A DNA stretch of 63,235 nt, the filler included, from Globobulimina sp. (lineage: Eukaryota), in assembly GCA_003354225.1 (NCBI GenBank). It is 57 parts of 57 records of this genome, joined end to end, with 100 filler letters (N's around TTAATTAATTAA, not from the genome) between each part and the next. Parts side by side here need not be neighbours in the genome. Positions count along the whole stretch, not along the records: positions 27,796 to 28,806 come from PIVH01025855.1; 56 more parts are not named here. One strand, written 5' to 3'. The notes beneath the pieces are model-generated. The model made no database searches. It worked only from the letters and a program-made list of their open reading frames with translations, and was not told the origin of the DNA. Shown one piece after another: positions 1,486 through 55,367 of this stretch (within the stretch, counting starts at the first letter, position 1; each line of letters begins with the position of its first letter). The position numbers were made by a program, and so were the translations under genes.

Positions 1486-2124
1486 TTAATCCAGCACCAT
1501 TCCTTGACATATCATACCATCTGCAACTTTCATAAAGCCAGCTGCATTTGCCCCCAATTGCAAATCCCCTTTACATCCTAAATCATGCGCTACTCTGCTT
1601 ATTTCATCATATATATGTTGCATTATTCCAAATAATTTCCCATCCACTTCTTTTCTGCTCCATTCCACTCGTTGTGAATTCTGCGCCATTTCCAATCCAC
1701 TCACTGCCACACCACCTGCATTCGCTGCCTTTGCTGGGATAAAAAACCTACACTTTTTTTTAAATATCTCTATAGCCTCCGGCGTGGATGGCATATTTGC
1801 GCCCTCAGCAACATATAAACACCCATTCCTCACCAAAGCAGCCGCAGCTTCTCCATCAATCTCATTCTGTGTCGCTGATGGCAATGCCATGTCACATACA
1901 ACATATTTCCATGGTTGTTCCCGTTCAAAAAATTGAGCATTTTTGTTTTTACCTTTGATCGACTCATAAAATTCACGCAAACGCCCTCGTTTATTCTCCT
2001 TAATATCTCGCAATGCATTGAACTCCTCCATGCTATATCCATTTTGTATAATGCACGCACCGCCAGAATCTGAGAAGGAGACCACAGAGCCACCCATTTC
2101 CAACACTTTTTCCGCAGCAAAAAT
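1486..2124 (-). CDS. gdhA: NADP-type glutamate dehydrogenase, C-terminal part (5' truncated)
   Basis: Motifs ALPSATQNEID, YVAEGANMPSTPEA, PAKAANAGGVAVSGLEMAQNS, GANAAGFMKVADGM. Confidence 0.95.
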   Translation of the reverse strand: MFAAEKVLEMGGSVVSFSDSGGACIIQNGYSMEEFNALRDIKENKRGRLREFYESIKGKNKNAQFFEREQPWKYVVCDMALPSATQNEIDGEAAAALVRNGCLYVAEGANMPSTPEAIEIFKKKCRFFIPAKAANAGGVAVSGLEMAQNSQRVEWSRKEVDGKLFGIMQHIYDEISRVAHDLGCKGDLQLGANAAGFMKVADGMICQGMVLD

Positions 2125-12233: not shown

Positions 12234-13244
12234 AGCATTATTAGCAAACAAGAGTTAGTCGACACCCTTAAGAATGTTTTAAATGGCGTACCAGCGTTTG
12301 CTTTGATGCTTGGGTTGCAGATAGTCTCTCCTCAGATGAAAAATATCTTAGGGTGGATCAATGATTTGCGTATTAAAGCCCATCAAATATCTGCCAACAC
12401 ATGTGATCTGTCGGCTCTTTTAGTGGGTGGCATGGTTTCGCGAAATGAAGCCTTAAGTGCACATTGGTGTGCCATGGATGCGGTTAAGCACGGCAAGCTT
12501 AGTGGTAGAGCTGCTGCGGTCATGTGTGGTCGTGATCCAAATTATAGAAGTGGCGTTGAAAAGCTGGCGCAAAGTAGAGGTAAATGGGAGCTAACTGATA
12601 ATTACAATATAGCACATGAAGCTATGAAAAGAAGTGACGTATTGAATTCCCTTGATGCAGAAACTAAAGCTTTAGTTATGACAATCACCGGTTCATTTGT
12701 GGTGAAAGATGGAAAGCCTTATGCAATACATGGTGACGCTAAAAATGGCATGATTGCTTTGTACGAGGGCGGGCCTATAAAATTAATTAATTGTGCTGAT
12801 GATTCTTGTTTAACAACAAAAAAAACCGAGCTTTCGATCCCTCCGAAAAAATCATTTTCTGGTAATTATTATTCTATTTTAGTGGCGTTAGCAGAGGCTT
12901 TGAGCGATGGTGGCGGGATAGATGACAGTACCAAAATTAAAGTTAATGTATTGCTTAGTAATACTAACTTGCCTATCTATGACAATATGCAAGCCCATGC
13001 AGTTGCAGTTGGCTCTGTGCCATACGGTAAAATCCAACAATATTCCGAAGTCTTAGCCCTTGATGTGATCAGTAATTATCTGGACATGATAATTAGAGAA
13101 ATGAAAAAAGGGCTAAAGAGTTTGAAGCCTAAAATCAGTCAAGATGTAGTCGTGCAGGATTTTGAAAAGGGATTGAATGATGTTATACGCCTTGTGCGTA
13201 CATCTCAAGGCAATATCCGCAAGAAGGTTGGAACTAATTATAGA
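12234..13244 (+). CDS. traH: F-type conjugative transfer protein TraH, internal fragment (bacterial)
   Basis: SIISKQELVDTLKNVLNGVPAFALMLGLQIVSPQMKNILGWINDL..ISANTC matches the TraH N-terminal block; also ALVMTITGSFVV, LINCADDSCL and TNLPIY; no introns, higher GC. Confidence 0.8.
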
Positions 13245-27795: not shown

Positions 27796-28594
27796 TCAGA
27801 AAATTTACTTTCTATTCTGTTAAAGTTGTATTTTACTGGGATTCCCATAGCCAACTGCGAATTATAAGCATTGACCAAACCTTCTTGAACATCCTTTCGT
27901 ACTACTTTTATTTTGCATTCCAACAATTTAAATTTAGGATCTTTAGTTACATCAGTACTATTGTACATAAGCCTGCAATTATTAAAGTTCGACATTGAAT
28001 GTAAACATTTAAAGGTACCTAAATTTGTCTTTGGCATGTCTCAGTGTAATTCGCATTCCGACTTTGTTAATAAGCATTTTCAAACTTTGCATCATGGGAA
28101 AGGGAAAACGTCCAAAGGTTTCAATCGCTCTGCCATTTGACAGCCAATTCATTCTTGTTAAAAAGCCTTGATTTCTTGTCTTTGATTTATCTAATTCTAG
28201 AGTATCATATTGGCCATTTGTGTCTTTCGCAGAACACAGCGATTCACCTAGCCAAGATTTGTTGGGACTCGAACCATAACTGTATACATAATGGAAATAA
28301 GCATACCAGGGCCAATTTCCTAAAAGGTGTAAAATTTAGGAAACTGTTCATTCCAAACTTTAAGCTTTTACCATTTGTAAGAAATGCTATTTTGTCCCCG
28401 ACCTGAACAATAACTTCTTCCCACATAGAAAAATGTGCCATATTTATAGGTGCACAGGAAAAAGTATCAGGCAGAGCCTTGTCCGTTTTGGCATCATACA
28501 GTTTCCATTTACTCCACAAATCGATATCGAATGATGTCAAACTATGAGATGAAGGGTCGATTTCGAAAACAACTTCTTGAATATAGAGCCACAT
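27796..28594 (-). CDS. Second Polinton/Maverick (adintovirus-type) major capsid protein, spliced: introns 28320-28371 and 27973-28018; partial
   Basis: EVVFEIDPSS..KWKLYDAKTDKALP..APINMAHFSMWEEVIVQVG..TN/GNWPWYAYFHYVYSYG..AKDTNGQYD..NQGFLTR..IETFGRF..KMLINKVGMRITLRHAKDKF/RLM..KFKLLECKIKVVRKDV..AYNSQLAMGIPVKYNFNRIESK; 52- and 46-nt GT-AG introns restore the frame. Confidence 0.82.
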
Positions 28595-30017
28595 GATCTA
28601 AGCTGATGTGAAAGCCAATTTATGCTTTAAATTCCACGTGATGAGAGCCAATGAACCAAAAACCGCGCCGAGCTGACCCCTCCATGAAATCTCAGCCTCT
28701 CAGAAGCAGGAGCTCTTCTACACGCAGCTGAGAAAGTCGGTCAAGCTCAAGGAAGACGTCGGTCAGTACCGACGCGCCGCTACCGGGCATCCCGATCACA
28801 CCTACGNNNNNNNNNNNNNNNNNNNNNNNNNNNNNNNNNNNNNNNNNNNNTTAATTAATTAANNNNNNNNNNNNNNNNNNNNNNNNNNNNNNNNNNNNNN
28901 NNNNNNTGACACTGCAAAATAGTTATAATCATCTATGAACGGCGCCATGTTACTCTAATGGAATTAGAAAGATATGCGATTTTACAGATAATGCCTGTTA
29001 AAGAGCGTTTTTATTCAGGCAGGAATATTCTTTTGTATGTATTTATCGATCCAGGAGAGTGCCCAGCCTAGCTCACATTGATCTGCAGTATAGAACGGGG
29101 GTGGCTGTTTATTCGACGCGACTGAGCTCTTTCGTTTATGATTTTTAGTAAATGTATATTCTTCTATAATGTATATTTCAGAGGCGTTATAAACAATCAA
29201 CGGGTGATGATTTCTGCCATCAATAGGCGTCTACTGTCCAATAAGCCTCAAGGCGTAATGTGGAGAGAAATCCACCATTAATAGGCGTCTACTCTCAAAT
29301 ATCCCGAATGTATTAAATTCTCTTGTGATTTTGAGGAATGAGCCTCAAATAATATAATAAAAATAACTGAAAATATTGTTTATTCATATGCTTCAATGCT
29401 GCGCAATTGTCAGTCTGCTTATAATGACAACAATAACATGTTTGGTTCTATAATAACCTTTCGTGCATTGTTACGATACTGTTCATCTCTTCTTGTTTAC
29501 AAGCGCAATGTGTGCACATATTCAGAATGATGTTTTCTCGAAAACAGCGCTGATTCAACAATGTTGAACCCTACTCGTCAAATTATAATAGTGGCTATAG
29601 TAGCTATAACCAATTACAGCGGCCTACTTCTTGCACAAAGCGCGGGAAACCGTAAACAACTAAACCCCTCTCACCTTGTAGTATTACAGGCACCAACGCG
29701 ACTTTACATTCCCCTAGGATGAACCCTACTCAAGAAAAACTAATTGTTGTAACTAAAACTTGTTGAACTAATTTATTTTAGTACTACACTCTACTTTATT
29801 TTGCCGAAAAGACAATAGAATATTGTTAAATAACGCTGTTAGATTGCGAATTGTCGAAGTGATAGATGTGGAAAATAGATTGATGTTAGAAAATGTTGAG
29901 CTTAATGATGCTTATAANNNNNNNNNNNNNNNNNNNNNNNNNNNNNNNNNNNNNNNNNNNNTTAATTAATTAANNNNNNNNNNNNNNNNNNNNNNNNNNN
30001 NNNNNNNNNNNNNNNNN

Positions 30018-33409: not shown

Positions 33410-34361
33410 TCATCCTTTATTAAGACAACGATAGCAATGACCTTTAATTTTATCCCTGCGTGCTTTAAGGGTTGTATATTCAGTACATTCATCAGGCCAA
33501 TGTGGTTTTGTACAGTACACACATGATTTAGGACTGCGGGAATTAAATTTAGGCTTACCTGGGGTTTCAAACTTACCCTTAGATCCAGATCCGACAAACA
33601 GAGCTTCAGTCGTTGCTTTGTATCCACCTTTTTCTGAGCCATGATTTGGTTTTGGTGGATTTGAATAATTAGTGCTTGAGGCACCTGGGACCACTGCTGA
33701 TTCACTGGCAATGATATATTCACCCAATAGATTTCGCAAATTTCTCACTGTCCATTCAGTTGCCGAACCTTTATGCATATTGAGCTGTCGGAGAACATCA
33801 GTAGGTAATTTGCATTTTATCATAGAGACAAATTGTGGATGGTCCACATCTTGACCAATTGCTTCCAGACTTCGCATATGTTGTTCCACACTGTCATAGA
33901 ATTGGCGTAATTTATGCACTTGATTTGAAGTTGCGGGCAAATTAGTGAGCTTCATGTAGTGGGCATCAATAATAGCCTGTGGATCTCCAAATCTTGTTTT
34001 TAATAAATTCAATGCCACTGTATAATTTTCATTTGACAGTTGGATTCCCGAAATGGCTGTCAATGCTTCGCCTGACAATTTGCTCTTCAAATAATTGAAT
34101 TTGACTATTGAGTCCATATCTTCCCTTTTGTTAATCACCGAATTAAATGAATCCCAAAATTCAGTCCACTTCATTTTATTCCCATTAAATGTTGGCATTT
34201 CCAACTTGGGCATATGAGTGGCGATAGGAATAGTACTACGACCAGTACCAGTTGAAGGATTTCTTCTTTCAGTTGTTGTGGATGTACTTGCCACATTATT
34301 CTGATTGGCCATCAACTGTTGTACCTGTTGTTGAATTCTCTGCATTTCTGGATTTGGTACA
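33410..34361 (-). mobile_element. BEL/Pao LTR retrotransposon gag (DUF1759 plus zinc knuckles), partial
   Basis: LEMPTFNGNKMKWTEFWDSFNSVI..KFNYLKSKLSGEA..NYTVALNLLKTRFG; CVYCTKPHWPDEC; CYRCL. Confidence 0.92.
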
Positions 34362-54455: not shown

Positions 54456-55367
54456 TATGAAGATCTAGAAGCTGAATCACATCACCGAATAATAGCAAGA
54501 GGTAATGTAGAAACACCATTGGACACCATACAGGAAGAAAGAACTATTGGTACCAATAGCCCAAATAGCCAAGAGAGCCATGTTGAAGAACTATTAACAA
54601 GAACAATGGAAGAAAGTCGTGCTCGATTGTGGAAGAATGCATATGATCAAATTAACTGTGATGCATCCAAGAAACAAGGAACAGAAGACGAACCATCACA
54701 AGCTGAAGATCAATCAGCACAAATTAGAAGGATAAATGCGATCCTAACAACGGAAGTAATACCAAGATCAGAAAAGAAAGAGAGCAAATCAAAGGCATGT
54801 GGTTATAAATGGTCAAGGAGTCACAAGAAAGGTACCTTATGTCATCAAGGGGAAAAAGACATCCCAGGACCAGGCTATGTTTGTCACAATTGTAACTCTC
54901 CGGGACATTGGCGCCATCTATGCACAGGACAATCAACAACAAATTCAACTGGATCATTATTTCGTGATATTTGTAGGGGAATAAATCGACGAGAATATTG
55001 TCAAGATCGCGATTACCCAATGATGACCAATGAACAAGCATGGCCAAATGTTCCCATGTCGATAGTACGAGAATACCAAGTACAAGCATTGAGAGTGAAG
55101 CGCAAATATCGCCAAGTTCAAGAGGATGTATCAGTAGAACGAACAGAAAAGATACAGGTAACAACAGTCGAAAGATGGCCAGACATATTGTTTTGCAAAG
55201 ACCCAAATGCATGGATATGTGAAGCATGTAAAGAAGAGCGAGCATGCCCATACTGGATAAGAATTTTAGAATTAAAAAATCAAGCGATCGAACAAAATCT
55301 ACAACGTGAATGCGCAAGTAAAGAATTTAGCGATTCACAGCGACTAGATGACCAACAATCCAGATAA
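54456..55367 (+). CDS. CCHC zinc-knuckle protein, possibly gag/ORF1-like; partial
   Basis: PGPGYVCHNCNSPGHWRHLC; intronless, A-rich. Confidence 0.55.
   Translation, partial: YEDLEAESHHRIIARGNVETPLDTIQEERTIGTNSPNSQESHVEELLTRTMEESRARLWKNAYDQINCDASKKQGTEDEPSQAEDQSAQIRRINAILTTEVIPRSEKKESKSKACGYKWSRSHKKGTLCHQGEKDIPGPGYVCHNCNSPGHWRHLCTGQSTTNSTGSLFRDICRGINRREYCQDRDYPMMTNEQAWPNVPMSIVREYQVQALRVKRKYRQVQEDVSVERTEKIQVTTVERWPDILFCKDPNAWICEACKEERACPYWIRILELKNQAIEQNLQRECASKEFSDSQRLDDQQSR

Follow-up and report, generated by a model that had tools for sequence, protein, structure and literature searches.

The capsid gene fragment studied here, which we call copy 2, sits on a single contig of 1011 bp at positions 27796-28806 of the window, that is, of the whole stretch of 63,235 bases that was analysed. 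The window, with a GC content of 25-36% throughout, consists of 57 unplaced contigs, each 1010-1012 bp long, which are sorted by length and chained via N44-TTAATTAATTAA-N44 linkers. Since it is a chain of separate contigs, adjacency of features across linkers is without meaning. Copy 2 is read on the minus strand, where three exons alternate with two short inserts; positions in the protein are given below in the coordinates of a family profile of 436 positions. Exon 1 (28372-28594, 223 nt counted from the ATG at 28594) corresponds to the first N-terminal jelly-roll strands at profile positions ~41-114. It is followed by intron 1 (28320-28371, 52 nt, GTAAAA..TTTTAG, phase 1, 29% GC) at profile position 115 and by exon 2 (28019-28319, 301 nt), which holds the middle of the first jelly roll with a tyrosine-rich helix and a variable loop. 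Intron 2 (27973-28018, 46 nt, GTACCT..TTGCAG, phase 2, 28% GC) falls at profile position 210, and exon 3 (27796-27972, 177 nt) brings the end of the first jelly roll, reaching to profile position ~263, and stays open to the contig end. Our preferred reading, which we consider probable, is that the contig carries the central part of an endogenous Polinton/Maverick-type double jelly-roll (DJR) major capsid protein (MCP, 'PY') gene, split by two short spliceosomal-type introns.

Joined, the exons give 701 nt and 233 codons with 0 stops; given the base composition of the copy 2 exons, the chance of an open frame of this length is ~1.4e-8. The original prediction, in which introns at 28320-28371 and 27973-28018 join three exons into one frame, was exact in its coordinates, and the MCP motifs that it listed are present in the copy 2 sequence. 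Enumeration of the GT..AG pairs around both junctions yielded 19 x 8 = 152 alternatives, only six of which (6/152) leave the frame open; scored with the family profile, the chosen pair ranks first at 106.4 bits and the runner-up reaches 95.8, while exons 1, 2 and 3 alone score 9.4, 51.5 and 15.3 bits respectively. Left unspliced, the frame of exon 2 meets a stop 3 codons into intron 2, and the 52 nt of intron 1 shift the frame. With the introns removed, the alignment to relatives runs gap-free through both junctions.

A second capsid gene fragment (copy 1, described below) has three further interruptions, and all five in the two window copies have GT..AG ends, a length of 46-60 nt and 23-29% GC versus 36% in the exons; in ends, length, and restored frame and homology all five look as spliceosomal introns do. 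None of them occurs as a repeat elsewhere in the window. These sequence properties argue that the copy 2 inserts are probably spliced. In the contigs of one public run, which are DNA-like, no spliced joint was found at either copy 2 intron. A divergent short contig of the same run has an odd joint, in which 27931 is followed by 93 other letters and then by 28016.

Copy 2 does not contain the full coding sequence of ~430-490 aa: its 233 codons are ~49% of the protein. The C-terminal ~170 profile positions, i.e. the second jelly roll, lie beyond the contig end, and copy 2 lacks the N-terminal 40-50 residues that are conserved across the family. A profile search of the 209 nt upstream of exon 1 (E<=10, filters off) found no family-like N-terminal exon in any frame. 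In the upstream flank (28595-28645, minus strand) an in-frame TAG (28598-28600) directly precedes Ile-Met at 28597-28592. The same flank has a possible 3' splice site, TTAG/ATC, which could be a third acceptor, and there is probably a third intron upstream of exon 1. Further out, at 28646-28806, GC content rises to 54-66% versus ~24-50% elsewhere on the contig; this stretch has no recognisable relation to the gene, matches no Pfam or Rfam entry and is not repeated elsewhere in the window. It could mark a junction or a truncation point, or else result from chimeric assembly. Taken together, the missing N-terminus, the TAG and the GC jump mean that copy 2 is 5'-truncated or rearranged, mis-assembled, or provided with an unusually long first intron; on this contig the gene looks 5'-truncated or rearranged. 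To call the frame intact, as had been done originally, was therefore an overstatement: it extends over the middle half only (214/436 positions), with a TAG before the ATG and no N-terminal exon upstream.

These features bring up the possibility, which we regard as somewhat doubtful, that copy 2 is a dead relic, a truncated and decaying pseudogene of an old Polinton insertion that is not expressed and whose inserts are irrelevant introns or simple insertions. It would account for the in-frame TAG before the ATG, for the lack of an N-terminal exon in 209 nt when none of the five modelled introns exceeds 60 nt, and for the abrupt change of composition at 28646, and it suits a 1-kb unplaced contig of a repetitive family with ~91% identical variants in the public run. 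On the other hand, a decaying gene is hard to reconcile with 233 stop-free codons or with inserts that both have exact GT..AG ends and whose removal restores collinearity. The same GC jump, unexplained as it is, could also point to an assembly artefact or foreign DNA, in the form of a chimeric contig or of another organism in the sample. The public run (of unspecified kind) contains 0.44 of the sampled words of the copy 2 contig, but its contigs cover 27800-28476 only and none lies on 28476-28806; moreover, at least one other window contig carries a bacterial-type TraH gene. Yet this gap in contig cover proves nothing, the coding part of copy 2 shares the low GC content of the window at large (36% in exons), and one Logan contig in the public run matches 28210-28426 without a difference. 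We thus consider an artefactual or foreign origin quite unlikely.

The preferred reading, an intron-split Polinton-type capsid gene, rests in the first place on homology of the spliced product. Against a profile built from 68 'F54H12.2-like' proteins (alignment A1), the conceptually spliced copy 2 scores 106.4 bits (E 1.4e-31, local hmmsearch), and the match is a single collinear domain that runs across both junctions over profile positions 50-263 of 436 (214 positions). The profile search thereby places the spliced protein in the 'F54H12.2-like' MCP family. The family had been reached through exon 2: phmmer against 1.84e9 representative proteins returned 16 matches at E<=1e-3, nine of them family members matched in a single stretch, including P0001 (153 aa), P0013 (451 aa) and P0014 (498 aa). 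The other seven (P0003, P0004, P0005, P0008, P0009, P0010 and P0012) were dropped as repeat proteins with several matched stretches; the one that was checked, P0003, is a BspA-type LRR/Flg_new protein. P0014 is named 'uncharacterized protein F54H12.2-like [Lingula anatina]' at NCBI and has 85 relatives at E<=1e-5, among them proteins of the same name from scallop, leafhopper and fish as well as many unnamed metagenome proteins of ~435-445 aa.

Annotation resources have little to say about this family. Single exons and ORFs of copy 2 gave nothing relevant with Pfam and PHROGs; a sub-threshold sCache_2 match (E 0.013) was taken as chance. Neither PF21738 (DJR-like_dom) nor PF16903 (Capsid_N) was matched by the exons (hmmscan, E<=10) or by P0013, P0014 or the metagenomic MCP of locus L052 (hmmscan, E<=0.1), and the full-length P0013 and P0014 matched no Pfam or PHROG model. 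The family profile had 0 matches among PDB sequences at E<=10, a word-indexed search with exon 2 brought up no longer protein, and among the papers listed for F54H12.2 / F54H12 none was recognisable as dealing with the 'F54H12.2-like' family. As a language-model lead only, clusters indicated by the ESM Atlas features of exon 2 have PF21738 in 10-15% of their members.

Structure prediction links the family to known capsids. An AlphaFold2 model of P0014, computed with the 68-sequence alignment A1, has a pLDDT of 84.8 and a pTM of 0.81 and is almost all beta, disorder being confined to the basic N-terminal 71 residues. Its top Foldseek matches in the PDB are the MCPs of PBCV-1 (8h2i, 5tiq), Sputnik (3j26_A) and grouper iridovirus SGIV (8hif), at E 5e-16 to 3e-15 and probability 1.00, among 251 matches at E<=1e-3. 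In BFVD the best match is a Cotesia sesamiae bracovirus protein, which at 31% identity is a sequence relative; adomavirus LO7, a MELD-virus protein, virophage MCPs and many giant-virus MCPs follow. By its predicted fold, then, the 'F54H12.2-like' family is one of DJR capsid proteins. The structural evidence proposed originally was obtained through a relative, P0014. Mapped on the P0014 model, profile positions 50-263 take in the first jelly roll plus the initial strand of the second, i.e. copy 2 would cover most of the former and the start of the latter.

Gene neighbourhood provides context. Metagenome contigs were scanned and yielded 400 relatives, from which 80 loci were kept (L001-L080), and ORFs of >=150 aa were clustered in the 35 loci of >=4 kb. 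All 35 have the MCP ORF (35/35), always as one uninterrupted frame of 418-493 aa. A penton protein (cl0) accompanies it in 33/35 and an rve-chromo integrase in 31/35, followed by an adenain/Ulp1-like protease (23/35), cl4 (19/35), an A32/IVa2-like ATPase (17/35) and a pPolB of PF03175 (3/35). Pfam supports these names with rve + Chromo for the integrase, Pox_A32/Adeno_IVa2-like models for the ATPase and, by weak matches, Peptidase_C5/C48-like models for the protease; the large ORF found in 3/35 loci (1300-1470 aa) matches DNA_pol_B_2 at E 1e-48 to 7e-50. Among the loci listed, the module lies on one strand in the order ATPase, cl4, integrase, cl0, small ORF, MCP and protease, L045 being a partial exception. 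The cl0 model (pLDDT 85.8) is that of a penton: VIA-align Z scores are 15.8 with the PBCV-1 penton, 15.6 with the adenovirus penton base, 13.1 with the mavirus penton (6g41_A) and 11.9 with the Sputnik penton, and BFVD matches include adomavirus LO5 and the mavirus minor capsid protein. Two components of the modules are conserved but match no Pfam entry, namely cl4 (~250-290 aa), which lies between ATPase and integrase (e.g. L052:920-1675), and an ORF of 160-290 aa between penton and MCP (e.g. L052:3766-4554). One pPolB, at L068:400-4800 on the minus strand, has N-terminal C2H2 zinc fingers (PF00096, E 6.5e-9).

This is the defining gene set of Polintons/Mavericks. According to Krupovic, Bamford and Koonin (2014, PMC4028283), PBCV-1 Vp54 is the HHpred match of Polinton PY from Hydra and Danio; PY and the copy 2 family are alike both in their structural match to PBCV-1 Vp54 and in their penton, protease, ATPase, integrase and pPolB neighbours. 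The MCP neighbours together with the PY-Vp54 match show that the family assignment made earlier is right: profile match, family fold and gene neighbourhood all bear out copy 2 as a member of a Polinton-type MCP family. We infer that it belongs to a Polinton with both pPolB and integrase.

Copy 2 is only 25-28% identical to full-length relatives whose context was examined, and its nearest relatives (P0001, P0002 and P0007) are known only from contigs of 1-3 kb. It is conceivable, but in our view unlikely, that copy 2 is the capsid gene of a polinton-like virus, an adintovirus-like virus or a virophage and not of a classical Polinton/Maverick, which has both pPolB and an rve integrase; the structural neighbours of the family do include MCPs from adomavirus, MELD virus and virophages. 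Virophage MCPs (Sputnik 3j26_A; mavirus) have the DJR fold in common with the family model (Foldseek E 6.2e-16, TM 0.56), whereas sequence identity is ~10%. Virophage genes are not known to contain spliceosomal introns. Adomavirus LO7 is a BFVD neighbour of the model at E 1.9e-18 to 4.3e-18 and, according to PMC13696692, has an HHpred match to PF21738; from adomavirus LO7, the hexon-like proteins of adintoviruses and MELD viruses, and PF21738 itself, our family differs in giving no PF21738 match by hmmscan. Against these alternatives also speaks the profile matched at E 1.4e-31, since it was built only from a family residing in modules of integrase, penton, protease and ATPase (plus pPolB), and a scan of IMG/VR viral contigs, both with A1 and with exon 2, revealed no relative.

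The window holds a second member of the family. Copy 1, on the contig at 6673-7684, was detected with the family profile only, a tblastn search of the window with spliced copy 2 having found no paralogue. It is modelled on the minus strand as four exons (7636-7481, 7420-7228, 7169-6885 and 6829-6673; 128.5 bits spliced), with GT..AG introns of 60, 58 and 55 nt between them at profile positions 100, 161 and 265. Copy 1 is open at the contig end, and an AG acceptor precedes its first modelled exon. Compared in an hmmalign alignment to the A1 profile, the two copies are identical at 30 of 203 aligned residues (15%), and blastp of copy 1 against copy 2 gives no match; the deep divergence noted between them is real. 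Since copy 2 has its introns at positions 115 and 210, no intron position is shared. Judged from these sequences, the copies are two old lineages, each with putative introns of its own. It had been argued that an intact frame despite such divergence suggests purifying selection. This does not follow, as the divergence is that of two old viral lineages and carries no information on selection in place. We suggest, tentatively, a more specific picture in which two ancient capsid lineages (15% identity) persist in one AT-rich eukaryote, copy 2 with two to three introns and copy 1 with three to four, none of them shared.

The closest relative of copy 2 is P0001, a protein of 153 aa from a Logan/ENA contig of 3025 bp. 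Its identity is 59% over 153 aligned columns to spliced copy 2 (blastp) and 68% to exon 2 (phmmer). Exactly at the site of intron 1, P0001 has an unrelated insert of 16 residues, and its ORF ends at the site of intron 2. Such a pattern, read from the protein only, is what a prokaryote-style gene caller would be expected to produce on an intron-bearing gene. It suggests that the same two introns may exist in another genome, and that mis-called fragments of the copy 2 subfamily may be present in protein databases.

More closely related sequences come from the public run, in which we found several variants ~91% identical to copy 2. In the comparison of copy 2 with such a paralogue, 13/33 of the exon differences listed are synonymous, against an expectation of ~22% that assumes random substitutions and ignores transition bias (one-sided binomial p 0.019, differences drawn from more than one contig). 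Outside the variable loop (codons 113-129), about half of the copy 2 changes among the differences listed are synonymous. A comparison among paralogues thus does show a synonymous excess, but the list leaves out 18 differences and the test is weak, and purifying selection on copy 2 is weakly supported at best. This excess nevertheless speaks against the relic interpretation. On the preferred reading, copy 2 presumably is or was functional.

Alternatively, a capsid-derived gene could have been domesticated, i.e. retained for host use, and have gained introns like any nuclear gene. Several short introns, compared with uninterrupted ORFs in 35/35 metagenomic relatives, would be explained in this way, and intron positions that differ between the window copies are as expected of long nuclear residence. 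However, copy 2 is multicopy, with ~91% identical variants in the same sample as is typical of a mobile family, and lies on an unplaced repeat-like contig; we find domestication very unlikely. For an endogenous Polinton-type gene as we prefer to see it, the introns have consequences of their own. Being intron-split, copy 2 would, if expressed, need nuclear transcription and host splicing, and it would fit an element integrated long ago better than a recently packaged virus genome.

Eukaryotic genomes commonly contain capsid genes of the Polinton/Maverick type, and the copy 2 gene as such is therefore expected. What is beyond routine annotation is only the intron content and the link of the 'F54H12.2-like' family to the Polinton capsid. 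As to the latter, a large and mostly unannotated family is now tied to Polinton capsids by fold and gene neighbourhood. As to the former, copy 2 stands apart from the metagenomic relatives of the Polinton MCP, uninterrupted in 35/35, by its two introns, by covering only positions 50-263 and by belonging to a divergent subfamily (25-28% identity). Introns are said to have been mentioned in some Polinton genes by Kapitonov and Jurka in 2006 and, reportedly, by Pritham et al. in 2007. Within a Polinton capsid gene, the retrieved portions of the Polinton-intron literature describe no spliceosomal introns besides the introners of dinoflagellate proviruses. These eupolintoviral proviruses have introns derived from introner transposons of related sequence (PMC12166617). 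They resemble copy 2 as integrated Polinton-type elements with spliceosomal introns; the dinoflagellate introners are, however, mutually related, whereas inspection by eye reveals no evident similarity among the five introns of copies 1 and 2.

Should the introns be spliced and the genes be expressed, polintoviruses or polintovirus-derived capsid genes would have evolved for long as intron-bearing nuclear genes, and the locus would offer a handle on how integrated virus-like elements turn into ordinary nuclear genes. There is a practical side to this as well. Endogenous-virus surveys with prokaryotic gene finders assume intronless genes, as stated in the methods of PMC10120064, and intron-bearing capsid copies, if true, would be largely invisible to them. 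With capsid genes interrupted repeatedly by short introns, as in this genome, calling that ignores introns yields fragments and undercounts elements.

On the remaining 56 window contigs, profiles of the penton, integrase, protease, ATPase, cl4 and pPolB clusters found no other Polinton gene in a six-frame search (E<=0.01). Their content is mixed. The bacterial-type gene mentioned above is a contig-long ORF at 12234-13244 (plus strand) that matches the conjugative transfer protein TraH (PF06122, E 8.8e-30); its presence means that the assembly includes some non-host or transferred DNA, with a symbiont, a contaminant or a transfer as possible origins. Retroelements are represented by a BEL/Pao-type gag-like ORF at 33410-34360 (minus strand), with DUF1759 (E 6.3e-36) and a zinc knuckle, and by a second gag-like ORF with a CCHC zinc knuckle at 54456-55367 (plus strand). 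Kinesin and plant-type LRRs are encoded on other contigs. Finally, a fragment of an NADP-glutamate dehydrogenase lies at 1486-2124 (minus strand) and indicates that the collection searched includes no close sequenced relative of the source organism: the top matches of the fragment, protist-type proteins from EukProt and metatranscriptomes, are <=65% identical, and the best named ones come from the foraminifer Ammonia sp. (58%) and from tunicates (57-58%).
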